Origin: an uncultured Candidatus Saccharibacteria bacterium
Lineage (GTDB): Bacteria; Patescibacteriota; Saccharimonadia; Saccharimonadales; UBA4665
Direction of reading: 5' to 3'
Length of the DNA stretch: 64,000 bases
Assembly: GCA_964574915.1 (NCBI GenBank)
Contig: CAZNOW010000002.1
Span: forward strand, 32,328-96,327
Under the pieces are notes generated by a model. It had not been told where the DNA came from and searched no databases. It saw only the letters and a program-made list of their open reading frames with translations. The position numbers were made by a program, and so were the translations under genes. Position 1 is the first letter of the stretch. Each line of letters starts with the position of its first letter. Positions 1,748 to 12,470 of this stretch are shown here, piece by piece.

Positions 1748-1839
1748 CTAATCCTACCCCCATTAGTCCATTGTCTGGTGCATCCCTAAACTCTTCAGTT
1801 TTTTAGCCAATCTTATAGTGGTTCACAATACGATACGAG

Positions 1840-2250
1840 CTAAGACCCTTTTCCATGTACTACGTCGAATTCAATCTGCATTTCTTGTATTCTCGATTTA
1901 AGCTTGGATTTGTCTACTGATTGCATGAAACCGACCGAATGTACACGATCTGATATTTCATCAACAGTCATATGCCCCAAAACGGTTACTGATGACGGTC
2001 CACCAAGATACTCTGTGCTACCTGGTGAGCAGTGATCGCTAATTAATACTCCGTCTGCATTGATCATACCGTCTTTGTCTTTTTGCCAACCTTCCACAAT
2101 CAGGCTAGAGCCTTCTGGCCTATCACTGTCGGGTGGTAGTTTGATGATATCTCCAAATTGTAAATCTTCAGGACGGATATTTAATGGGTAATCGGTTCTT
2201 TCTGCAGTGTTAGGTTGAAAGTTTGCTGGTGCAAACGAGAATTCAGACAT
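1840..2250 (-). CDS. hypothetical protein (last cassette of the array)
   Basis: 136 aa ORF with no recognisable motif. Its start-proximal leader is shared with the gene at 5984..6709. Confidence 0.45.
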   Translation of the reverse strand: MSEFSFAPANFQPNTAERTDYPLNIRPEDLQFGDIIKLPPDSDRPEGSSLIVEGWQKDKDGMINADGVLISDHCSPGSTEYLGGPSSVTVLGHMTVDEISDRVHSVGFMQSVDKSKLKSRIQEMQIEFDVVHGKGS

Positions 2251-2288
2251 AAGTAAACATTAGCATAATTTAGTGTATTTGGCAAGTA

Positions 2289-2317
2289 TGGCATACCGTA
2301 ATCAGCGACGTTGGAGC
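2289..2317 (-). repeat. cassette-flanking direct repeat, copy R1
   Basis: Plus strand TGGCATACCGTAATCAGCGACGTTGGAGC. Matches the family consensus TGGTACACCGTAGTCAGCGATGTTCGGACC. Lies 50 nt 3' of the stop of 2368..3699. Confidence 0.7.
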
Positions 2318-2367
2318 TTGTCAATTCCTTGCGAACTAGCCTTTAAGTTTCTTATAGAGTGATCTAA

Positions 2368-3699
2368 TTATTGAGTAATCTGTACCTTACTATTTAGCAC
2401 CGCAGTCAATGTATAGGAGCTAGGATTTACGAGGGCATTCTTGAATATGTAATTAGTGTATGAGTATTGAGTTGGATCTGACCCAAATGGAGGGATGGTA
2501 ACTGCTCCTAATTCGGTATTACCAGCTAGCGTGACAGTGCCAGTGAATGTTACAACAGCTGGAGTGCCTTGCCCCGGTAAATTACCGACACAATCCATTG
2601 GTCCACTGATACAGCTAGTTATTGCTCCCGTTATGTCCCCAGTTGTATTGGTTAAATCATATGCTAAACCATTACCGCTCATAGTTATATTATTCGTAAT
2701 AGTCATTGCCAGAGTTTGATTATTACCTTCTATACTACCCATAGAATCGATATCCAGACTACCGCCGTTTTGTATATCAATTTCACTATTACCCAGTCCA
2801 TCAGGAGTACCAAGAGTGGCACCATTCTCAACACCGAGGATGTTATTGGCCAGGTCAACTATCGCACCAGAGCCAATTGTTACTTGGCTATCCAAATTAG
2901 GGCTAGTAATTGCAAATTGAACGCAAGAATTATCACTAATATAAATCGGGCCGCTACCGCTTAACGAGTTGTTGAATTGAATTGTGCTGAGAGGTAGTGG
3001 TGTCGGGTTATTACTGCTATCCACACAGCCCGTCTTCATGTTAACAATTGAGGATTTAGGGATTGTAACGACGCCGCTAATAACAAGCGTACCAGCTTGA
3101 GTATTAGTGATGATTATGTTGCCGTCCAAATCTAAGTTATTATCGATTTCAGGGCTGGCTCCCTCGTTAAGGATTTGGTTTTTTATGGTAAGACCATTAC
3201 CCTTAACATCTATAAATTTACTTGAGCCATTAAATATTAGCTCGTTAATCACTAACCCGTTAATATTGTTATTAATTGATGTTATTACGTTCCCGTCACT
3301 ATCTTTGGTGGTTTTAATATTACTTAAATCTATATCCAAATTTTGTCCGTTTTGGGGTACGCCTAAACTCCAGTTGCTCGCACTATCCCAATTAGTATTA
3401 TTACCCTTGCCGACCCATGTGTTGGTGGTCGGCGTGGTGGTTGAAGTAGGAGTATTTGTAGTTTTATGATAATTCTTATAAACATACCAACCGCCGACAG
3501 CAATAAGAACAACCACCAATATAATCAATACCGATATTAAAGTTTTATGAGTATTATTTTTTTGTTGCCTTGGCTGTTCTGAAGATATTACAGATTGAGA
3601 TGGGGTTGGATCGATCAGTTGCGCAGGCGGTGTGTTTATGGGTAACGGTGTTGACGTAGGTGTAGGTAAAGGGTCAGTATTGTTTGTATTAGGTTCCAT
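2368..3699 (-). CDS. membrane-anchored surface protein with a beta-helix-type repeat region (autotransporter-associated beta-strand-repeat-like)
   Basis: 443 aa. P/T-rich N-terminus, one TM helix (LISVLIILVVVLIAVGGWYVY) and a T-rich linker. Then WVGKGNNTNWDSASNWSLGVPQNGQNLDI followed by G/N/T/I-rich repeats. Confidence 0.55.
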   Translation of the reverse strand: MEPNTNNTDPLPTPTSTPLPINTPPAQLIDPTPSQSVISSEQPRQQKNNTHKTLISVLIILVVVLIAVGGWYVYKNYHKTTNTPTSTTTPTTNTWVGKGNNTNWDSASNWSLGVPQNGQNLDIDLSNIKTTKDSDGNVITSINNNINGLVINELIFNGSSKFIDVKGNGLTIKNQILNEGASPEIDNNLDLDGNIIITNTQAGTLVISGVVTIPKSSIVNMKTGCVDSSNNPTPLPLSTIQFNNSLSGSGPIYISDNSCVQFAITSPNLDSQVTIGSGAIVDLANNILGVENGATLGTPDGLGNSEIDIQNGGSLDIDSMGSIEGNNQTLAMTITNNITMSGNGLAYDLTNTTGDITGAITSCISGPMDCVGNLPGQGTPAVVTFTGTVTLAGNTELGAVTIPPFGSDPTQYSYTNYIFKNALVNPSSYTLTAVLNSKVQITQ

Positions 3700-3771
3700 A
3701 TCATGTTCAGCATAAACAATATTAATATTTATGTAAATGAAATGATATCAAATACAAATAATTTTATTCTT

Positions 3772-3796
3772 TGGTGCACCAAGATTTGGAGGATTC
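3772..3796 (-). repeat. cassette-flanking direct repeat, degenerate copy R2
   Basis: Plus strand TGGTGCACCAAGATTTGGAGGATTC. Shares the TGGT.CACC head. Lies 34 nt 3' of the stop of 3831..4328. Confidence 0.4.
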
Positions 3797-3830
3797 ATAT
3801 CTGTCGGATTAATATGCAGTAAAGGCGATA

Positions 3831-4328
3831 CTAGAACTTGCCTTCTAACTGGATAGCTTCGACTTCATTCATGGATTTAAAGGTTTTATCACCATTAAAA
3901 TGAATGATAAATCCCAATGGATAATTTGCGGTATCTGATAATACTTTGGGTATCCATAATCTATCAGCTGGCCACATGTCATTAAATGGTAGTTGGTTTG
4001 GCTGAAAGAGCTGAGGACGCATTTCTTCTGTCTCAGCCGGCTCACCCGTAAAATCACATGAATATGCGCGACTTACAACACCTAGTGCACCATCAAAATA
4101 GAAATGTAGATTAGCTAAATGTAGCAGGTTACTAATATGTAAACCGACCTCTTCAAGCGTTTCGCGTCTTGCTGAATCTTCATAAGATTCGTTATTGAGT
4201 AATTTCCCGCCAAAACCATTCCACCAACCTTCGCCAAACCCCCTCTTCTTCATGCCCAGCAAAATACCTTTTGTATTTTGGGGAAAAACAATAGTCGTTC
4301 TTTGATAACCAACCTCGACATTAGCCAT
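3831..4328 (-). CDS. NUDIX hydrolase (MutT/MTH1-like)
   Basis: Nudix box GKLLNNESYEDSARRETLEEVGL fits GX5EX7REUXEEXGU. Paralog of 11836..12300. Confidence 0.8.
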   Translation of the reverse strand: MANVEVGYQRTTIVFPQNTKGILLGMKKRGFGEGWWNGFGGKLLNNESYEDSARRETLEEVGLHISNLLHLANLHFYFDGALGVVSRAYSCDFTGEPAETEEMRPQLFQPNQLPFNDMWPADRLWIPKVLSDTANYPLGFIIHFNGDKTFKSMNEVEAIQLEGKF

Positions 4329-4372
4329 AGGATAATATTAGTACTGAAGTTTATAACATAAAAGCGTAAGCA

Positions 4373-4405
4373 TGGCGGCGCCGTAGTCAGCAAAGATGAA
4401 AACTC
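4373..4405 (-). repeat. cassette-flanking direct repeat, copy R3 (subfamily ending AAACTC)
   Basis: Plus strand TGGCGGCGCCGTAGTCAGCAAAGATGAAAACTC. Lies 15 nt 3' of the stop of 4421..4810. Confidence 0.65.
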
Positions 4406-4420
4406 TATGATTGATGCGGT

Positions 4421-4810
4421 TTATTTAATCTCTGGGTAACGGTCACTATTTTTACGATAATACTCAACCCACTTGTTATCTTTATCCACCTCAACATAGT
4501 CAACATATAGTCCTTCTTTAAAAGCACCATTCTTGTCGAGTTTAATCTTCTGTGCCTTAGCTATATCCATATCTGTTAAACCATATTTTTGTTTAAGGTC
4601 ATCGAGTGCTTGCTGTACATCTGCAATTTCTCCTGCTACCTCTTCAGGCTTTGCCTGTGTAATTTCTTTCGTTTCTTCAATAATTTTGAGAATTAGCGCT
4701 TGCTTGTGCCTTTTGTCGTCTAGGTGGTGGTATTTAGGTTTTGCTCCTGAAGCTATTTGATTCTCAACGATTTTATCTCTTACCAATTTGGCGAATTTAA
4801 ACTTAGGCAT
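4421..4810 (-). CDS. MazG-like nucleoside triphosphate pyrophosphohydrolase
   Basis: 129 aa. N-terminal KLVRDKI, then an EE..E...E..D helical pattern (IIEETKEITQAKPEEVAGEIADVQQAL). Confidence 0.55.
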   Translation of the reverse strand: MPKFKFAKLVRDKIVENQIASGAKPKYHHLDDKRHKQALILKIIEETKEITQAKPEEVAGEIADVQQALDDLKQKYGLTDMDIAKAQKIKLDKNGAFKEGLYVDYVEVDKDNKWVEYYRKNSDRYPEIK

Positions 4811-4893
4811 ACATGTACTATAACAATGTCGTTAAAGAAATTATTATTACTAAGAACTATATGAATTAGCAGTGAACAATTTACAGTAGCTTA

Positions 4894-5733
4894 CTATTGG
4901 TATTGTCCGATTGTAGGCAGTTGGTTGTTATTGTTTTCTTGATATGGGGGTTGATTTGGTTGGGGAGTAATTGGGTTGGCAGCTTGTGGATATGTTGGAC
5001 TAGGTATTGGAGGAGTGGGGCTATACGCAGTAGGTTGTGTGGTTTGAGGTGCAGTAGATGGATTAGTTGGATAAGGTGAGCTACTGATTGGTTGCGATGG
5101 AGCATAGGGTATTGTGGGCTGTTGCGGCATAAGTGGTTGAGCTGGCATAGTCATACTAGGTTGGACAGATTGTTGGAAAGGTTGGGTTTGCTGAGGCCAA
5201 GGTTCGGCCGTAGGAGCTGCAGAAGCCATCGGCCCCATATTGTAGATAGTCGATCCTGGTGCAATACCGGCATCAAGCATGTCATTGAAAGTGTCCTGAA
5301 CAATAGCTACACCAATGAGGTGTAGTAACCACAATAGTAAGAAAGTTATGCCGGTTCCGGATTTACCATTCGTGTATACATTAACTGCTTTAGAGAACTT
5401 AAAGAACCAATAAAAGGAAATTAACACGGATGCAATTAAGGAAACGACGGCAACAAGTAATCCAATTATCCCAGTACCGTTTATACTTGTACTGCTGGTA
5501 GCTATAGAGCCGCTAGCTGTAAATGTTGTCTGTGTTGATTGGTTGGTTACTGCAATTACAATAGTTGCAACTATGAAAATAATGATAGGAGAAAACAACA
5601 ACCAAATAGTTGGAGTATGAATTTTAGTCTTTTTGTTTAACTCAGTTTTAGTTTTAACTAACCAATAAATGTCATAGATTCCAAATGTAATAATACTTAG
5701 ACAAAACACTGCTAAGGGATTTCGGCGTTTCAT
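4894..5733 (-). CDS. DUF4234-like membrane protein with a P/Q-rich C-terminal tail
   Basis: N-terminal RNPLAVFCLSIITFGIYDIYWLVKT motif and several TM helices. The C-terminal ~110 aa are rich in P, Q and T. Confidence 0.55.
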   Translation of the reverse strand: MKRRNPLAVFCLSIITFGIYDIYWLVKTKTELNKKTKIHTPTIWLLFSPIIIFIVATIVIAVTNQSTQTTFTASGSIATSSTSINGTGIIGLLVAVVSLIASVLISFYWFFKFSKAVNVYTNGKSGTGITFLLLWLLHLIGVAIVQDTFNDMLDAGIAPGSTIYNMGPMASAAPTAEPWPQQTQPFQQSVQPSMTMPAQPLMPQQPTIPYAPSQPISSSPYPTNPSTAPQTTQPTAYSPTPPIPSPTYPQAANPITPQPNQPPYQENNNNQLPTIGQYQ

Positions 5734-5854
5734 AATGTTTGTTTAATACTCTTTTACGATTAATTTTTATTATTCTACCATAAGCAGTTAGGTTTTTAAA
5801 GTGTTACATGTCTAACACCATCCTCTAACCGGGCCTAGAAACAAAACAAACGAA

Positions 5855-5883
5855 AGTACATCACCTTATACGATGTTCGGACA
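5855..5883 (-). repeat. cassette-flanking direct repeat, copy R4
   Basis: Plus strand AGTACATCACCTTATACGATGTTCGGACA. Preceded by the CCTCTAACCGGGCCTAGAA module (5822..5840). Lies ~100 nt 3' of the stop of 5984..6709. Confidence 0.55.
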
Positions 5884-5983
5884 GTTTTATGTGACGAATT
5901 TTGCTAATAATACACTTGCCAATAGTCGGCTAAATTAACAAATTGTACAAAGAATTCAGGCTCTATTGATTATTGCCCGATTA

Positions 5984-6709
5984 TTAGGCTACTGCACTTT
6001 CGGGTATAACTAAATTTCCAATTTGTTGAGCTACATCTGTACGTTGCTCTTCTGGCCGTAGGTAATTCCATCTTGCACTATTTTGTGCATCGTCAAGTAA
6101 ACCAAGATATCCTTGTGCTACATCCAGTATCATTACATTGCCGCCATGCGAAGTATAACGAACCCACGCGTGACCATCTAATTCACTATTGGGCTGCCAG
6201 ACGGCATTTCTGTCAACGCTGATATCTCCTCTAATATAACCTTCGTCTTTAAACGATTGGAGTAATACTGCACATGCTAATGCTTGGTGACGACACACAC
6301 CAGCATGATTTTCCATGAAAACACCCAGATCAATTTTACTTCCATCAGGAAACTGTGGCAGTCCTTTTGCTTTACCTATATCATTCAAAATGGAATCAAC
6401 TTTTTCTTGTGAATAAGGCATTTCAGTTGAAACTGTATCGAACACAGCCTGTAATACTTTTGACCGCTGTATTTTGCCGTTTTCGATAGCGCGTTGTTTA
6501 GCTTTTTCGAAATATAAACGGTATTGCTCTGGATTCTTTGACGGGTCTACAACAATTGCCTCACCTTTATAGGTGCCATAATATACTCCACCACGGACAT
6601 CCATATCTCTACCGATTAGTTGTCGACCTTGGTAGATAGAACCAAATTCTTTACGTGCCGTGGTAGTGTACCCCCAGTCGGTAGGTAAATCTTTTTCTTT
6701 TTCAGGCAT
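5984..6709 (-). CDS. transglutaminase-like (papain-fold Cys-His-Asp) protein
   Basis: 241 aa. GVCRHQALACAVLL (Cys), DGHAWVRY (His) and ILDVAQ (Asp) occur in the order and spacing typical of transglutaminase-like cysteine peptidases. Confidence 0.5.
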   Translation of the reverse strand: MPEKEKDLPTDWGYTTTARKEFGSIYQGRQLIGRDMDVRGGVYYGTYKGEAIVVDPSKNPEQYRLYFEKAKQRAIENGKIQRSKVLQAVFDTVSTEMPYSQEKVDSILNDIGKAKGLPQFPDGSKIDLGVFMENHAGVCRHQALACAVLLQSFKDEGYIRGDISVDRNAVWQPNSELDGHAWVRYTSHGGNVMILDVAQGYLGLLDDAQNSARWNYLRPEEQRTDVAQQIGNLVIPESAVA

Positions 6710-6747
6710 AGATAAACATTAGCATATTCTTGTTTATAAGTCAATCT

Positions 6748-6795
6748 TGGTGTACCCGTAGTAATAGGAGAATGCTGGAAATGTTGCAAAGGTCC
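6748..6795 (-). repeat. cassette-flanking direct repeat, degenerate copy R5a
   Basis: Plus strand TGGTGTACCCGTAGTAATAGGAGAATGCTGGAAATGTTGCAAAGGTCC. No ORF lies between it and copy R5b. Confidence 0.5.
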
Positions 6796-6881
6796 TGAGT
6801 TTTATACGGTTATGTATGTGCCTATATTTTTGGACTTCAACTTCTAATCATGCCTAACATAAATAACATATAAAATAATCG

Positions 6882-6911
6882 TGGTACACCGTAGTCAGCG
6901 ATGTTGGGACC
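6882..6911 (-). repeat. cassette-flanking direct repeat, copy R5b (extended unit about 6840..6911)
   Basis: Plus strand TGGTACACCGTAGTCAGCGATGTTGGGACC. Its last base overlaps the stop codon of 6911..7138. Upstream module CTTCTAATCATGCCTAAC. Confidence 0.85.
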
Positions 6912-7138
6912 TATTTACTAGCCGAATGTTCGTCAGCAATTTCTGAAATTTGACCACGCTCTTCGTTAGTAATTTTGCGTGCTACACCTACACCATCTAA
7001 GGCTAAACCACCTATTTCGACTGGTGCCCATCCAAAATCATAAGCTACGCCAGCTGCCCTAAGTGGGAGCCAATGCTCTTTACCTGCAATTAACATTTTA
7101 TAAAGAGGGAATACATTATCTGGGGTTGTTTCTGCCAT
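6911..7138 (-). CDS. hypothetical protein
   Basis: 75 aa ORF bounded on both sides by repeat copies. No motif recognised. Confidence 0.4.
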   Translation of the reverse strand: MAETTPDNVFPLYKMLIAGKEHWLPLRAAGVAYDFGWAPVEIGGLALDGVGVARKITNEERGQISEIADEHSASK

Positions 7139-7229
7139 AACATAAATTATCGATTATTTATTGTTATAGAGCAAGCAACAGCACTTTAGGTTCTAACGTC
7201 TAATCAGGGTTAACAGAAATAACAGATGA

Positions 7230-7259
7230 TGGTACACCGTAGTCAGCGATGTCGGAACC
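7230..7259 (-). repeat. cassette-flanking direct repeat, copy R6 (extended unit about 7189..7259)
   Basis: Plus strand TGGTACACCGTAGTCAGCGATGTCGGAACC, 28/30 identical to R5b. Upstream module GGTTCTAAC. Confidence 0.85.
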
Positions 7260-7280
7260 GCTTTATATGTGAATATTGCC

Positions 7281-7877
7281 TTAGGATGTTGCTCGTGAAC
7301 TTCTTAATGGTTTGGCTCTTCTCCCTAGTAGAATTGCCGCCACGATGGCTATGTTAAACAAAAATACGTACATTGGGGCGGCTAATAGAGATGGATCAAG
7401 CTTTCCGACCGCTAGCATATTGAATAACGTAGAAGCAATCCCCACATACCACATGAATATTGTTTCTGTTTGCGGATGCTTATAAGACTTGACGACTATT
7501 AATAAAGCTCCGATGCCGTCGGCAATTATGGTACAGATCAGGGCCGTTAGCGGTGAGTTATCTATCTTCCAAAGCGCAATCGCTAGTATAGCTACACCAA
7601 AACTGGCCACATTGACAAGGTTAACATCTCCGTAGCCTCCGCCCTTCCGCATTGATAGACTAAACAAAATAACATTGTTAATCACGGTCCAGCCGTAAAA
7701 AAATAGTGACGCCCGAGCACCTAGTTGTAGCTGGCTAGTAAAGAATAGAACGCTGAGTATTAAGAAAATTAACCAGGATATACGATGTGGTTTTGTCTTA
7801 CGGCGGTAGGTGTTGTAGATATAAGGTATTGCTCCGATAATGCATAAACAACCAGAGATCAAACCGAAAACGTACAT
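7281..7877 (-). CDS. polytopic membrane protein
   Basis: 198 aa, about 6 hydrophobic helices, basic C-terminus. Confidence 0.55.
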   Translation of the reverse strand: MYVFGLISGCLCIIGAIPYIYNTYRRKTKPHRISWLIFLILSVLFFTSQLQLGARASLFFYGWTVINNVILFSLSMRKGGGYGDVNLVNVASFGVAILAIALWKIDNSPLTALICTIIADGIGALLIVVKSYKHPQTETIFMWYVGIASTLFNMLAVGKLDPSLLAAPMYVFLFNIAIVAAILLGRRAKPLRSSRATS

Positions 7878-7960
7878 GCTTAAATATTAACTCACGCTAT
7901 TAAAAAGCAATAGCGTCTTGGTTCTAACTTCAATTAAGGCTAAAGAAAAATAGCAGATGA

Positions 7961-7990
7961 TGGTACACCGTAATAAAGGATGTTCAAACT
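7961..7990 (-). repeat. cassette-flanking direct repeat, copy R7 (extended unit about 7920..7990)
   Basis: Plus strand TGGTACACCGTAATAAAGGATGTTCAAACT. Shares CAGATGATGGTACACCGTA and GGTTCTAAC with R6. Confidence 0.8.
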
Positions 7991-8032
7991 TCGTTTGTTT
8001 ATGATTATCAGATGAGACTTACTAGTAATTCC

Positions 8033-8350
8033 TTAGTACGATAAGCAACCCGGCAAAGGGTTTATTACTCGTCCGTTAGATACATAAGGCCCCATATTAA
8101 TATCATCGACAACTAAACTCTCGTTCTCTTTGCCCCTAACTATTACACAGCTAGCAGTACAACCCAATCGCTGGCATCTCATCATTAATCTATCAATCAG
8201 CTTATCCCTTGTAAGCCCCTTACCATAGATGGATTCATGGAGAGCTTGAACAACATCATCATCCAAATTGCATTCAAAGTCGCAGTCAACCTCAAGTACA
8301 ACATCATTCAGGCAAGCCGGGCTACTTAAATCAGATTCTCGTCTCTTCAT
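8033..8350 (-). CDS. Cys-rich hypothetical protein, translationally coupled to the upstream VOC gene
   Basis: I favour the ATG at 8348..8350, which overlaps the TGA of 8347..8715 in an ATGA arrangement. The ORF track starts it at 8371. Confidence 0.45.
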   Translation of the reverse strand: MKRRESDLSSPACLNDVVLEVDCDFECNLDDDVVQALHESIYGKGLTRDKLIDRLMMRCQRLGCTASCVIVRGKENESLVVDDINMGPYVSNGRVINPLPGCLSY

Positions 8351-8715
8351 TGAATCTTTTGCCAAAAGCATAGCTTATAGCCATCAGGATCTTTTAGGAT
8401 AAACTCTCGATTACCCCAATCCCAATCCTTTGGTTCTGTAGCTGGTTTAAGCCCTGAACTGACTAGCTCTTTGTACTTTAAGTCAACATTATCAACACTG
8501 ATGTAAAGATACATTCCTCGACCCTTATCTGTAGACATTGAATCTTTTGAAAATATCTCTTCGTCACGCATATTAACTAATGTAATTTCAAAACCAGATA
8601 ATGACACTACAGAGTGGGTATCATCGGACTCTTTAACTTCAAAGCTAAGCTTCTTGTAAAATTTCTCTGAAAGCTTATTCTCCTGAACCCACAGCAGTAA
8701 ACTTGTTATTTTCAT
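8347..8715 (-). CDS. VOC family protein (glyoxalase/bleomycin-resistance fold)
   Basis: 122 aa with the typical size and pattern: FYKKLSFEV, then W..REFILKDPDGYKLCFWQ at the C-terminus. Confidence 0.7.
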   Translation of the reverse strand: MKITSLLLWVQENKLSEKFYKKLSFEVKESDDTHSVVSLSGFEITLVNMRDEEIFSKDSMSTDKGRGMYLYISVDNVDLKYKELVSSGLKPATEPKDWDWGNREFILKDPDGYKLCFWQKIQ

Positions 8716-8782
8716 ACAGCTATTGTCTAACAGAAGTAAATGGATTCAAAGTTATATTTACAACAATGTGACGTAGGTAAGA

Positions 8783-8812
8783 TAGCACACCTGCCCGAAC
8801 AATGTTCGGACA
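8783..8812 (-). repeat. cassette-flanking direct repeat, copy R8
   Basis: Plus strand TAGCACACCTGCCCGAACAATGTTCGGACA. Contains the palindrome CCGAAC-AAT-GTTCGG. A TCTAAC module lies at 8726..8731. Confidence 0.6.
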
Positions 8813-8846
8813 ATTCTTTTGTTGACTGATTTAACCTATATAAGGC

Positions 8847-9563
8847 TTAAAAGGGTGGTTGCTCTTCCCCGCAAGACTCATCGAATACTAACCAGCTGGC
8901 ATTCGCTAGGTATTCAGGGAAGCCCTCAGGGTCAATTTTCGGATATTGTGTTCTTGCCTCATCTATATAATAATTTCTCCACCACTTGTAGCCTTGCGGA
9001 CTTTTTTCTTTCAACAACTCAATCGCCTCGCGGCCTAGCACTGAAACACCGGGTTCCTGTTGACCGCGGACTGGTAAAGTAACACCAACCCATTCTTTAC
9101 GGATTTCCTCGGGGGCAAACCCGGGTGGTGTGCTGGTGATGGCAAATTGCCAGCGGGCTGGAGCAATATCATCAAGACGTGCTCGCAGGCGGTCAAAGTC
9201 TGGGGTTAGCCAGTCGCCGCTGAGTTGTAATAATCTACTAATATCATCTGGGCTTGGTGGTGAATATGAATCTCGCATGTTGGGCTGACGTCGTAATATG
9301 GGCAGATTCTTGCGGGTGGCAACTATACCCTGTCTGGCGGCATTAAGCAGCACTCTGCCTAGAAATTCTTCCATGAGCTCGTCATGTTCCTGAAGTCCCC
9401 ATTCACCGCTCATTAGGTGATGTAATATATGATAGGCACCAACCCTATGAGTGCCTTGTGTTTTATAGCTGACACCTGTATCTGGCATTATCTCAGGGGT
9501 TAATATGTTAGCTATAGATTCGTCCTTCATTTGTCCAGCACTGTGCCTACTCATCAATTTCAC
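8847..9563 (-). CDS. hypothetical protein
   Basis: 238 aa ORF with no motif recognised. By eye it looks richer in G+C than neighbouring cassettes. Confidence 0.5.
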   Translation of the reverse strand: MKLMSRHSAGQMKDESIANILTPEIMPDTGVSYKTQGTHRVGAYHILHHLMSGEWGLQEHDELMEEFLGRVLLNAARQGIVATRKNLPILRRQPNMRDSYSPPSPDDISRLLQLSGDWLTPDFDRLRARLDDIAPARWQFAITSTPPGFAPEEIRKEWVGVTLPVRGQQEPGVSVLGREAIELLKEKSPQGYKWWRNYYIDEARTQYPKIDPEGFPEYLANASWLVFDESCGEEQPPF

Positions 9564-9673
9564 TCCCCGATATTGTTAGTCATAATTTTATATGTAAGAT
9601 AAATCAATGCAAGCAGCAGCATTTTGTCCGAGCTTCTAACCAGGCCTAACTAAATTAATAGATACAAAAATCG

Positions 9674-9703
9674 TGGTACACCACGCTGAACGATGTTCGG
9701 ACC
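9674..9703 (-). repeat. cassette-flanking direct repeat, copy R9 (extended unit about 9632..9703)
   Basis: Plus strand TGGTACACCACGCTGAACGATGTTCGGACC. Upstream module GCTTCTAACCAGGCCTAAC. Confidence 0.8.
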
Positions 9704-9891
9704 ACCTATCTTGCGAGGATTGTTTGACTTAACCTAAACTCTAAACGATTTCAGGATTTGAGTTAAGTGACAGAGTGGTTGGTGGTGTTGTGGAGGATTG
9801 AGAGCCCTAGCGGCGGGGAGCAATGACACACTTGTGTCTATGCTATGGGCAAACCCACGACCCCGCCACTTTTTGGGCAACCCTCAAGGGA

Positions 9892-10281
9892 TCAGAAGTA
9901 AGCAACCCACCCTAGGTCACTGTAGCTGAAGATGTTCTCCATTGTTGTTTCCAGTCGATCGTCGTCTGACCAAGGGTTTAACTCTTCTCCGAAGAGGACT
10001 ACCGCCAATCTGCCGATGGGGAGGACGTGCTCTTCAATCCACCGTCTGATCAGCTCTTCAAGCGCATGATCTGAAAGGAAGCCTTTATTGGATTCAACTG
10101 GTGTCAGTTTGGCCGCTGATGCCTCCTTGTGGAATACCCCACCTTCTTCAAGGGAGAAAACTTCGGATGGGATGCGTACGATCTTGGGCCTCACACCTTT
10201 CCGCAACAGTTTCAGACGAGTTGTCTGATACTGCTTGCTGCTGACGCTGCCGATGCACAGAATAACGTTACGCTGTGGCAC
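9892..10281 (-). CDS. hypothetical protein (GTG start)
   Basis: 129 aa. GTG at 10279..10281 is preceded by GGAGG about 10 nt upstream (minus sense GGAGGCAGCCTACCGTG). G+C-rich relative to its surroundings. Confidence 0.5.
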   Translation of the reverse strand: MPQRNVILCIGSVSSKQYQTTRLKLLRKGVRPKIVRIPSEVFSLEEGGVFHKEASAAKLTPVESNKGFLSDHALEELIRRWIEEHVLPIGRLAVVLFGEELNPWSDDDRLETTMENIFSYSDLGWVAYF

Positions 10282-10464
10282 GGTAGGCTGCCTCCTAATA
10301 ACTGCAACTGGAATCTCCAGTTTAGCTAGCAGCCTGCAAAGTATCTTAAGTTACAGACTATTAGCCAAACTAGAGTATCCACTCTGTCAATGTTCTTCGG
10401 AGATAGAGATATCCACCTCAACGAATTATAACTACTTTAGCATAATAACTATCAACAGTCAAAT

Positions 10465-10494
10465 TGGTACACCATAATAGAGTAGGTTCGAACT
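10465..10494 (-). repeat. cassette-flanking direct repeat, copy R10
   Basis: Plus strand TGGTACACCATAATAGAGTAGGTTCGAACT. This copy is closest to the tRNA-Arg 3' end (TGGTAC.CC head and TTCGAAC T-loop block). Confidence 0.75.
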
Positions 10495-10527
10495 TGTAAT
10501 AATTTATTTTCAATCAAAAATGATGAC

Positions 10528-11115
10528 TTAATTAGATAAATATTTCTTTTTCCAATTTTCAAGTTCTTCAATTGTTTTAACATTCCCTTGGAGGACAGCT
10601 TTATAAATCATGACAGAGTAAAATCCATTAGGATAGCGCCCCTGTTCGATGAGGTTTGCTTTTAAAAATATTATCGTATCTTTTTGAGATTCTGTGAGCT
10701 TACTATCCCAACCAACATAAAAGTTTTCTGCATCTAGTTGGTCTTCGGGTTTCATTACATGTGCATCAATTTGCCAAAGTACATTTTGCCATATTGGTTT
10801 AAACCCAATATAAAGACTTTTAGGGACATTGACATCCTTAGGCCAAATATACTGATTATGTATAGATACTTTACCAACCCCATCCATTAACATAATTTTG
10901 CTTGCAATATTCACCAAAGATTCAAGTGTCGGATTTGAATTGTAAATCAGAAAATCAATGTCGGGCTTAGCCATTAATCCATATCGAAAACTTCCGACTC
11001 TATGTATTTCACCCAGAGGTTTTAATAATTCTTCAACGTGATAATGGTCTAATATCTTTTGGGCAGTAGCCTGCAAATTTGCTTGATTTCTTTTAGCTTC
11101 CTCAAGTGTAATCAT
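10528..11115 (-). CDS. Pol-beta-superfamily nucleotidyltransferase-domain protein
   Basis: 195 aa. GSFRYGLMAKPDIDFLIY fits the G[SG]-x9-13-DxD nucleotidyltransferase signature. Confidence 0.55.
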   Translation of the reverse strand: MITLEEAKRNQANLQATAQKILDHYHVEELLKPLGEIHRVGSFRYGLMAKPDIDFLIYNSNPTLESLVNIASKIMLMDGVGKVSIHNQYIWPKDVNVPKSLYIGFKPIWQNVLWQIDAHVMKPEDQLDAENFYVGWDSKLTESQKDTIIFLKANLIEQGRYPNGFYSVMIYKAVLQGNVKTIEELENWKKKYLSN

Positions 11116-11179
11116 GGATTAATCATAGCAAAAACCAACAAATAAAATCTCAGAAGGAGCCTCTAATAACGCTTAAGCT

Positions 11180-11211
11180 TGGTACAGCGTAGTCCGAGAA
11201 GTCAGAAACTC
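11180..11211 (-). repeat. cassette-flanking direct repeat, copy R11 (subfamily ending AAACTC)
   Basis: Plus strand TGGTACAGCGTAGTCCGAGAAGTCAGAAACTC, preceded by CCTCTAATAAC. Confidence 0.75.
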
Positions 11212-11283
11212 TATTATGGCTGATTGTTATGTCGAACTATACGGTTATTAAAGAGATAGATTGTGTCTAGTTACCTACCTATA

Positions 11284-11511
11284 CTAGAGGTGGCTAATTA
11301 GTTCTTCGACTGTAATTCCTAAAGGATTGAGTATACCTTTCTTAAGGGTGCCTGGTTTAATTACTTTATGGTTTGGAATAATAGCAGTTCTACCTTTATT
11401 ATCTTTCATCTTGATATGACTACCTTTTTGGCTGACTTTAGTAAAACCCATTTTCTGTAGGGTTTTAATTAATTCATTGGCTGATAGTACTGGTTGCCTA
11501 GGCATGAGCAA
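11284..11511 (-). CDS. hicA: type II toxin HicA (mRNA interferase)
   Basis: 75 aa. LQKMGFTKVSQKGSHIKM...IPNH...LKKGIL is the HicA/YcfA signature. Overlaps hicB by 14 nt. Confidence 0.85.
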   Translation of the reverse strand: MLMPRQPVLSANELIKTLQKMGFTKVSQKGSHIKMKDNKGRTAIIPNHKVIKPGTLKKGILNPLGITVEELISHL

Positions 11512-11743
11512 GTTTAACGGGTACTACGAATTGACGTTTGTAGTCATAGTCGTTAGTAGCTTCTATTGCTGGGCTATCTTCTAAATAGAGTTCAATGGCT
11601 TCTTTAATGTTCTCAAGTGCTTCTTCAATAGTTTCTCCTTGTGAAGCACAGCCTGGCAGGTCAGGAACCCACACAGAATAACCACCGTCCTTTTCTTCCT
11701 GAAAGACTGCTTGATATTCAACTGATGAACGACTAATTTTCAT
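11498..11743 (-). CDS. hicB: HicB-family antitoxin (UPF0150 N-terminal domain only)
   Basis: 81 aa. YQAVFQEEKDGGYSVWVPDLPGCASQGETIEEALENIKEAIELYLE is the HicB-like fold motif. Confidence 0.8.
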   Translation of the reverse strand: MKISRSSVEYQAVFQEEKDGGYSVWVPDLPGCASQGETIEEALENIKEAIELYLEDSPAIEATNDYDYKRQFVVPVKLAHA

Positions 11744-11752
11744 ACTTTATAT

Positions 11753-11784
11753 TATAACACCGTAGTCTGAGAAGTAAGAGACTC
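11753..11784 (-). repeat. cassette-flanking direct repeat, copy R12 (subfamily ending GACTC)
   Basis: Plus strand TATAACACCGTAGTCTGAGAAGTAAGAGACTC. Very similar to R11. Lies 10 nt upstream of the hicB start and between hicB and the divergent NUDIX gene. Confidence 0.7.
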
Positions 11785-11835
11785 CATAATTAATGATTTA
11801 AGTGTCTTTCTTTCTTCTGCCTTATAATTGTATTC

Positions 11836-12300
11836 ATGAAACAGGCAACTCTTCTTTTCCTGTTAGATGACAGTCGAATACTCTTAGCTATGAAAAAACG
11901 TGGGTTTGGAGTAGGAAGATGGAATGGCGTTGGTGGGAAGCCAGATAAAGAAGAAGCTATCGATAAAGCTGCTGTTCGAGAATGCCAAGAAGAGATTAAT
12001 GTTACACCTAAAGATATCATAGAGGTAGCAACCCTCAATTTTTATTTTCCTGATAATAAGAAAGAATGGGACCAACAGGTGATTGTATTTACCTGTAAAA
12101 CTTGGAGTGGAGAACCTACAGAGACCGAAGAGATGTCTCCCCAATGGTTTCAGATAAATGAAATCCCTTACGATAAAATGTGGTCAGACGACAAGTATTG
12201 GCTACCGAAAGTTATTGAAGGTAAATATGTGAAAGCTGACTTTCATTTTGACGACAATGATAATTTACTGAAATATAACATAAAGCCCCAACAGGATTAG
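11836..12300 (+). CDS. NUDIX hydrolase (MutT/MTH1-like), second paralog
   Basis: MKKRGFGVGRWNGVGGKPDKEEAIDKAAVRECQEEINV closely parallels [38 protein letters not shown] in 3831..4328. Confidence 0.8.
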   Translation: MKQATLLFLLDDSRILLAMKKRGFGVGRWNGVGGKPDKEEAIDKAAVRECQEEINVTPKDIIEVATLNFYFPDNKKEWDQQVIVFTCKTWSGEPTETEEMSPQWFQINEIPYDKMWSDDKYWLPKVIEGKYVKADFHFDDNDNLLKYNIKPQQD

Positions 12301-12392
12301 AACTAATCTCAATCTGTTAACAAAAAATAGAGATGAAAGATAAGAAATATCAGAACCGTCTGAAAAGTGTATTAGAGACTAAATTCCTATGT

Positions 12393-12470
12393 GGTACGCC
12401 CGATAGGATTCGAACCTACGACCTCATCCTCCGCAAGGATGCGCTCTAATCCAGCTGAGCTACGGGCGCG
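12393..12470 (-). tRNA. tRNA-Arg (anticodon GCG), CCA encoded
   Basis: Minus strand GCGCCCGTAGCTCAGCTGGATTAGAGCGCATCCTTGCGGAGGATGAGGTCGTAGGTTCGAATCCTATCGGGCGTACCA. Acceptor stem of 7 bp with G1-U72. D arm GCTC/GAGC. Anticodon stem CATCC/GGATG with loop TTGCGGA. T arm GTAGG-TTCGAAT-CCTAT. Confidence 0.9.

Follow-up and report, generated by a model that had tools for sequence, protein, structure and literature searches.

What accounts for a run of small accessory genes stacked behind a single tRNA gene, nearly every one of them followed by the same short sequence? The question is posed by a 64,000-nt stretch of DNA (the window, whose positions are used throughout) from a Saccharimonadia genome (Patescibacteria/Candidate Phyla Radiation, CPR). 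Its closest public matches are Saccharimonadales metagenome-assembled genomes (MAGs), and the same contig is present in several metagenome assemblies. On the minus strand, a 30-nt element lies 3′ of almost every gene from 0.46 to 11.8 kb, giving an array of approximately 14 single-gene cassettes which adjoins tRNA-Arg, each cassette terminated by a 30-base site. A sequence-only reading had described an integron-like cassette array here. This view is supported, with cassette boundaries falling at the repeat, and we consider it probable (about 0.6) that the locus is a gene-cassette array anchored at a tRNA, a hot spot at which genes are captured in integron-like fashion by a recombinase encoded elsewhere in the genome.

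A two-block site behind tRNA genes

The repeat family named in the sequence-only reading is real. A repeat search recovered one family at 2289, 6882, 7230, 7961, 9674 and 10465 and a second at 4382, 11188 and 11761, together with longer versions of 64–71 nt, and a 30-mer searched at ≤3 mismatches occurred twice in the window against 0 expected. The core profile gave eight matches (E < 0.01), all on the minus strand and all within 2289–10494. It had no match in the 12.5–64 kb housekeeping core (ValS, TsaD, GroEL, PolA, PNPase, RpoD, FtsK), where the motif had not been seen on first reading either, nor in the 10 kb left of the window, and in the window and its relatives alike the element was found only in arrays. 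The G + C content of the array (0.38–0.43) is below that of the core (~0.45).

On the minus (sense) strand the site has the consensus GGTTCGAAC-ATC-N9-GGTGTACCA. The sequence logo consists of two near-invariant blocks, GKTYCGAAC-ATC and YGGTGTACCA, with a variable spacer of 8–9 nt between them; judged on sequence, this pattern resembles that of a protein-recognised recombination site. The second block contains a 4 + 2 + 4 palindrome, TGGT-GT-ACCA, centred on G71-T72. Three sites (J, K and L at 11180, 11753 and 4373) belong to a TTC-TCGGACTAC subtype which is also present in relatives.

Other copies are of a long type, with an AT-rich stretch after the 30-nt core, then an arm that contains GTTAG(G/A)C and is inversely complementary to the subtype-specific 5′ arm, and lastly TGCTGnTGCTTGC. 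Long-type sites occur in the window at 6832–6911, 7189–7259, 7920–7990, 9606–9703, ~5810–5883 and 458–521, and in related loci (cited here by L numbers) at L029 8313–8441, L035 1262–1378 and L022 2428–2536.

A degenerate pattern scan of 185,579 genomes returned 20 matches, with ~17 expected by chance on our own estimate. Approximately half of these (~10) were in Saccharimonadia or Patescibacteria MAGs, and only there were further copies found nearby; a metagenome scan contributed 21 more loci. Arrays of 2 to 8 or more copies, in a single orientation throughout, were found in ~25 independent Saccharimonadia contigs, and in every locus showing both a site and tRNA-Arg or tRNA-Leu(CAA) the sites follow closely downstream of that tRNA and share its orientation, a confinement that is observed directly, as is the anatomy of the arrays.

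The tRNAs targeted are Arg-GCG, Arg-CCG, Arg-TCG, Arg-TCT and Leu-CAA. All five end in GTACCA and have an unusual G1:U72 (G1:T72) pair, as examined in the window (12392–12469) and in L009, L013, L014, L015, L019, L022, L027, L032, L035, L037, L063 and L066. The Ser, Val, His, Lys and Gly tRNAs of the same loci have G1:C72 and no sites. T72 of the target tRNAs may be imposed by the recombination core GT/ACCA. The last six bases of the site, GTACCA, equal the tRNA 3′ end G71-U72-A73-C74-C75-A76, and the two site blocks correspond to a T-loop box GGTTCGAA and the terminal GGTGTACCA, hence the site resembles a tRNA 3′ end. Only GGTTCGA and GTACCA are common to site and tRNA, and sites of arrays at the five tRNAs resemble each other more than they do any tRNA. 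The sequence-only reading is thereby refined, in that the repeat mimics a tRNA 3′ end and the tRNA end itself is the first site.

Three further observations concern sequences beside tRNAs or sites. In L015, an IS200-type Y1 transposase gene (1573–2052) occupies the position of a unit, with tRNA-Leu(CAA) on one side and the first site of that array on the other. Paired sites just 53 nt apart, with a conserved 24-nt spacer (AACAYTTYTTGGKTYACTAAAA), occur at L038 4583–4664 and L026 270–340; from their sequence they look like an empty cassette or an excision footprint. In L058, which is from an unrelated organism, a 23-nt terminator-like sequence directly after tRNA-Lys (1537–1559) is repeated at 2425–2447. 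The two copies are 96% identical, 888 nt apart, and flank one open reading frame (ORF) which heads a long run of small accessory genes.

Cassette turnover, junctions and array layout

Relatives share the setting of the array but not its genes. The order BrkB/VTT ... tRNA-Arg, tRNA-Ser, HIT, HTH-HAD, ValS is kept in L013/L029, L019/L045, L022, L035, L042 and L063, and the genes from the distal flank to the tRNA are entirely different between relatives, with the same repeat at each tRNA-Arg locus. This turnover, observed directly, is in keeping with the sequence-only reading. L063 has the core synteny of the window (BrkB ... NUDIX, tRNA-Arg, tRNA-Ser, HIT, ValS) and cassettes encoding PIN, Fic, MazE, YafQ and ParE, along with a NUDIX gene 84% identical to that of the window. 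L035 and L042 are 100% identical through tRNA-Arg to ...GTACCACAA and unrelated thereafter. Because relatives hold different cassettes at the same spot, the locus behaves in an integron-like manner.

The junction positions, likewise observed directly, define the unit that moves. A patatin cassette (92% identity over 998 bp) adjoins tRNA-Arg in L019 and a site in L041; the homology spans from GTACCA to the end of the cassette's own ...GGTGTACCA, and the variable spacer of its site is common to both copies, which assigns the spacer to the upstream cassette. L006 and L031 are likewise homologous up to GGTGTACCA and no further. The NUDIX cassette comes first at tRNA-Arg(GCG) in both the window and L063, where the two copies are homologous from the tRNA end to GGTG; the site is intact in L063, whereas site K of the window is without ACCA. 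In L066–69, a tRNA-Arg(TCG) array includes a 77%-identical NUDIX as an internal cassette, with its own site and in the same inverted orientation, and the neighbouring tRNA-Arg(TCT) bears a single cassette of its own. These junctions indicate that the mobile unit is one gene plus its 3′ site, and that tRNA end and site are interchangeable as its left boundary. ORFs of both directions occur in L006 and L041 among sites of a single orientation, which argues for a DNA-level site, not an element of the 3′ untranslated region.

Not every shared gene is informative. The 129-aa gene at 4421–4810 is 82% identical to the second cassette of L042, and L008 and L023 also have genes in common, but in both cases the sites have decayed and the boundaries are therefore uninformative. 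For the 195-aa cassette protein the sole relative, in L058, comes from a stretch without repeats and is likewise uninformative. L063 also has, at ~9100–9233, a second site, after which part of the beginning of the NUDIX cassette is repeated (tRNA-trailer-like sequence and a NUDIX 3′-end fragment), apparently evidence of cassette duplication and decay.

The layout of the array is given in Table 1. The tRNA-Arg anchor reported before is confirmed, and tRNA-Ser neighbours it; it is also confirmed that all ORFs at 1840–11743 are on the minus strand. Several earlier statements needed amendment. A repeat was said to follow each gene or coupled pair, which holds for almost every gene, although there is no copy between 4421–4810 and 4894–5733. 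Among the copies called weaker, those at 5855 (E) and 8783 (G) are listed as sites and those at 1776, 3772 and 6748 stay weak. A copy at 458–521 had been missed, and the variable region thus runs further left than the start given before.

The cargo is accessory in nature, comprising HicB/HicA, VOC/glyoxalase, a DUF4234 membrane protein, a MazG-like protein and several proteins without a known family. The HicAB toxin–antitoxin pair, NUDIX and VOC genes had been recognised correctly. In addition to the two NUDIX genes within the minus-strand stretch, a third on the plus strand (11836–12300), adjoining the tRNA, is also a cassette and lies between the tRNA and site K. The 195-aa protein (10528–11115), taken for a nucleotidyltransferase on first reading, has no Pfam match.

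Table 1. Features of the cassette array in the window, listed from the tRNA gene outwards
Feature	Position	Strand	Site or remark
tRNA-Arg(GCG), anchor/primary site	12392–12469	−	3′ end ...GGGCGTACCA; GTACCA at 12392–12397; G1:U72 wobble
Cassette 1: MutT-type NUDIX (11836–12300, +, inverted relative to the array)	11753–12391	−	Own site K (11753–11784), truncated, without ACCA
Cassette 2: HicB (11498–11743) and HicA (11284–11511)	11180–11752	−	Site J (11180–11211), TTC-TCGGACTAC subtype
Cassette 3: 195-aa protein (10528–11115), no Pfam match	10465–11179	−	Site H (10465–10494)
Cassette 4: GC-richer, 129-aa ORF (9892–10281), long leader, structured RNA-like region (9795–9885)	9674–10464	−	Site D, core 9674–9703
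Cassette 5: long-type extension of site D (9606–9673, conserved), then 238-aa ORF (8847–9563)	8783–9673	−	Site G (8783–8812)
Cassette 6: VOC/glyoxalase (8347–8715) overlapping 112-aa ORF (8033–8371)	7961–8782	−	Site C (7961–7990)
Cassette 7: extension of site C (7920–7960), 198-aa membrane protein (7281–7877)	7230–7960	−	Site B (7230–7259)
Cassette 8: extension of site B (7189–7229), 75-aa ORF (6911–7138)	6882–7229	−	Site A (6882–6911), overlaps the stop codon
ORF-less remnant: extension of site A (6832–6881) and degenerate site X3 (...CTACGGGTACACCA)	6748–6881	−	Read from sequence
Cassette 9: 241-aa ORF (5984–6709)	5855–6747	−	Site E (5855–5883); its extension, in the next unit, reaches ~5810
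Two-gene unit: DUF4234 protein (4894–5733) and 129-aa MazG-like protein (4421–4810), no site between	4373–5854	−	Degenerate site L (4373–4405)
NUDIX cassette (gene 3831–4328)	3772–4372	−	Weak site X2 (3772–3796, ...TTGGTGCACCA)
Cassette of 443-aa secreted or membrane protein (2368–3699)	2289–3771	−	Site I (2289–2317)
Cassette of 136-aa ORF (1840–2250)	1776–2288	−	Very weak site-like stretch X1 (1776–1797)
Site F, degenerate long-type copy	458–521	−	Between plus-strand ORFs 84–446 and 644–1747

Many cassette ORFs begin 6–8 nt after a TGnTAnnnT box on the minus strand (seen by eye, for example at 2251–2275, 6710–6735 and 11744–11760), which suggests extended −10 promoters carried by the cassettes and leaderless mRNAs. 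A generic sigma-70 promoter and terminator scan showed no enrichment, hence the case for cassette promoters is made by reading the sequence. Cassette 4 differs from its neighbours in having a long leader, which contains a hairpin (10306–10384), and an AGGAGG ribosome-binding site. Within the same cassette, 3′ of the ORF 9892–10281, the minus strand of 9795–9885 gives a 95-nt three-way-junction fold (−49.7 kcal/mol, z = −3.8, matched by 0 of 200 shuffles); the opposite strand has z = −0.5, and there is no Rfam match. Further afield, L001 1–2500, ~7–9 kb left of the window start, contains five tandem genes similar to those for type IV secretion system pilin/TrbC, then an HSP20 gene and two tRNA-Ser genes.

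A proposed capture mechanism and its rivals

In the mechanism we propose, a cassette would start with its own extended −10 promoter, as picked out by eye, and a nearly leaderless ORF, and would end 10–70 nt past the ORF in the conserved ~30-bp double-stranded site GGTTCGAAC-ATC-N9-GGTGTACCA. We infer a site-specific recombinase acting in trans, which would join the site of a circular cassette to the tRNA 3′ end or to a resident site, with the crossover 3′ of the spacer, inside GGTGTACCA. Insertion would regenerate the tRNA, and successive cassettes would line up behind it head to tail, with the latest arrival closest to the tRNA. As to the type of enzyme, the central dinucleotide of TGGT-GT-ACCA would suit a serine recombinase, and the 6-bp GTACCA would equally suit the overlap region of a tyrosine recombinase.

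Several findings weigh against this reading. The window, its left flank and ~25 related loci yielded no recombinase of any kind, which upholds and widens the earlier statement that the window contains none. Queries with XerC, XerD, lambda Int, phiC31 Int and PinE were run against six-frame ORFs of ≥70 aa from 639 kb of loci including the window. For XerC, XerD and lambda Int, the best E values in the window and related loci were 0.17 (profile) and 0.27 (single queries), and phiC31 Int and PinE had no homologue in the 639 kb. Pfam scans of 62 and 75 related-locus ORFs had no recombinase among the matches listed, and those of 10 window ORFs and 10 array-flank ORFs had none. The mobile-element genes found in the loci (one IS200 TnpA, one IS1595, one IS110, one partial rve and one weak Replic_Relax) were not recurrent. 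Furthermore, the element had no matches in viral contigs, phage records or plasmid collections, and there were no circular cassette contigs among the contigs examined. Several cassettes have degenerate sites or none, and the spacing from block 1 to GTACCA is 5 nt longer in the sites than that from T-loop to 3′ end in tRNAs. Long-type sites are 86–89% identical over ~100 nt between genomes although the flanking genes are unrelated on both sides, and a simple crossover at ACCA does not account for this conservation. Lastly, ~10 contigs of the window's own population, from several samples, have the same cassette order, and no strain-level rearrangement was seen in any recovered contig of that population; movement is therefore slow or has stopped, and the array is sedentary on that time scale.

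The chief alternative, which we regard as unlikely, is accretion of decayed tRNA-targeting integrative elements (tycheposon or genomic-island growth), whereby the repeats would be att scars and the genes survivors of deletion that are not independently mobile. Such growth would produce a tRNA 3′-end anchor, a single orientation, a regenerated tRNA and a GTACCA common to tRNA and repeat, and it agrees with the island-growth model for Prochlorococcus (Hackl et al., bioRxiv 10.1101/2020.12.28.424599); many sites are indeed degenerate, the order is fixed within the population, and the tRNAs are intact with the breakpoint right after ...GTACCA. However, the units are uniformly one gene or a coupled pair with a site 10–70 nt past the stop codon, the same single-gene units recur with their own site at other ranks and other tRNAs, and the 639 kb of loci contain no integrase or integrase remnant. 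Nor is the repeat a displaced copy of the 3′ part of the tRNA, as its 5 extra nucleotides and the closer likeness of sites to each other than to any tRNA across the five-tRNA arrays attest. Homologous recombination after DNA uptake, with sites and tRNA as short homology anchors and no dedicated recombinase, is less probable again. It would explain why no recombinase was found in the loci searched, and long-type sites do offer ~100 nt at 86–89% identity whatever the neighbouring genes, but tRNA/site junctions share just 6 nt and the breakpoints are nevertheless exact. It also leaves unexplained both the conservation of a 30-nt two-block sequence across genera and the exclusive use of GTACCA-ending tRNAs.

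We give still less weight to explanations which make the repeat an RNA element, an attC site or a dispersed signal. At the RNA level, a tRNA-like 3′ end might terminate, stabilise or process the mRNA, or tag transcripts for reverse transcription and insertion behind the tRNA CCA. The invariant blocks, a T-loop box GGTTCGAA and an acceptor-end-like GGTGTACCA, invite this idea, as do units which stop exactly at CCA and a potential ACATC/GGTGT stem whose T–G wobble pairing exists only on the sense strand. It is nonetheless very improbable. Single-stranded folds of sites A–D (80–90-nt elements, both strands) had energies of −1.2 to −7.5 kcal/mol and were no better than shuffles (z from +1.5 to −0.9), and the ACATCG/CGGTGT inverted repeat had 0 compensatory changes in 23 independent copies not chosen by search patterns. 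The sites have no T-arm stem, U-tract or terminator signature, ORFs can be antisense to them, cassettes extend far enough beyond their start codon to take in a putative promoter, and no reverse transcriptase is in view. A known RNA family was rejected, the only Rfam matches in the window being two tRNAs. In integrons, IntI is a tyrosine recombinase and attC an imperfect single-strand hairpin with boxes R″ (RYYYAAC) and R′ (GTTRRRY), crossover taking place in R′. An integrase-less canonical array with divergent attC sites (a cluster of attC sites lacking an integrase, CALIN) would match the single-ORF cassettes with a 3′ site in one orientation, the typical cargo and the imperfect terminal inverted repeats of long-type sites, and GTTRRRY occurs downstream in 6 of 15 sites as GTTAGGC or GTTAGAC. 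RYYYAAC was found at the 5′ arm of 0 of 15 sites, however, and the junction is at GGTGTACCA, not R′, with the spacer staying with the upstream cassette. Canonical attC was therefore rejected on folding, core-site consensus and covariation, as the sequence-only reading had anticipated in calling the repeat non-canonical. No IntI-like protein was found in the loci searched, and the literature searched gave no account of integrons, attC or tRNA-linked cassette arrays from Saccharibacteria or Patescibacteria; we give a divergent CALIN a very slight chance. Equally slight is that of a generic dispersed repeat (repetitive extragenic palindrome or miniature inverted-repeat transposable element), a terminator, or a transcription-factor operator of these genes. 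The element is short, intergenic, partly palindromic and often just upstream of a promoter-like box, but its confinement to arrays largely refutes this reading; it also has no terminator signature, its distance to the next start codon ranges from ~20 to >150 nt, and the tRNA end stands in for it at the first cassette.

The tRNA-anchored cassette array thus stays our preferred reading. A broader proposal, which we hold at a little under even odds, is that Saccharimonadia possess an independent, non-IntI capture system equivalent to the integron. An unlinked and possibly new or repurposed recombinase would move promoter-bearing single-gene cassettes at a double-stranded site mimicking the tRNA 3′ end, every GTACCA-ending tRNA would be an attI-like entry, and this requirement would have fixed G1:U72.

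CPR bacteria have tiny genomes and live as epibionts, and to our knowledge their acquisition of accessory genes is poorly understood. If the proposal is true, a platform recurring at up to five tRNA genes per genome, with cargo that is replaced from one close relative to the next, would be a main route of gene flux in the lineage, and a second, independently evolved answer to the problem that integrons solve. It would also suggest that a site of mobile DNA has shaped the acceptor stem of host tRNAs. The signature GGTTCGAAC-ATC-N9-GGTGTACCA downstream of GTACCA-ending tRNAs offers a means of mining metagenomes for cassettes and of seeking the recombinase by phylogenetic profiling.

Comparison with known systems

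Small modules flanked by short sites are known from Acinetobacter plasmids, where pdif modules are moved by the host Xer proteins and not by a module-encoded enzyme; their sites have an 11-6-11 dif architecture with an ATAA...TTAT core and alternate in orientation. The cassettes here are similar in their small size, short sites and lack of a module-encoded recombinase. They differ in being anchored at tRNA ends and in that the sites are all direct repeats, with no dif-like core in their consensus. In staphylococci, tandem cassettes of the staphylococcal cassette chromosome (SCC) lie at the 3′ end of rlmH (orfX) between short direct repeats, and some units rely on recombinases acting in trans. 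SCC units are many kb long, with Ccr recombinases usually encoded on one unit. Tandem units at the 3′ end of a conserved gene are common to both systems, and the central dinucleotide of TGGT-GT-ACCA would suit a serine recombinase; in the arrays described here, by contrast, the target is a tRNA, each unit has one gene, and no serine recombinase is in view.

Islands at tRNA genes, both those of the Islander type and those built by tycheposons, for which island growth has been modelled in Prochlorococcus (Hackl et al.), resemble our arrays in their integration at a tRNA 3′ end with the tRNA regenerated, one-way accumulation distal to the tRNA, direct repeats at unit boundaries, and a locus which is the peak of variability between relatives. 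Island units, however, are kb-sized and carry an integrase gene, usually beside the tRNA. Here the units are single genes of 0.35–1.5 kb without integrase or replication modules, no integrase was found in ~25 loci, and the repeats form one conserved family across five tRNAs in place of copies of the adjacent tRNA.

Integrons offer the closest parallels in organisation. Both systems consist of single-ORF units with a 3′ recombination site, stacked in one orientation beside a fixed primary site; both have cargo rich in toxin–antitoxin, NUDIX, VOC, acetyltransferase and unknown genes; and in both, relatives share the platform but not the cassettes. The differences lie in the parts. There is no intI beside the array or in view, the site is a conserved ~30-bp two-block sequence without RYYYAAC instead of a hairpin defined by structure, and the role of primary site falls to a tRNA gene's 3′ end. 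Moreover, a genome can have several arrays, at up to five tRNAs, and the cassettes seem to bear their own promoters. On this comparison, the likeness of the Saccharimonadia system to integrons is purely one of analogy, and the system falls outside the integron family.

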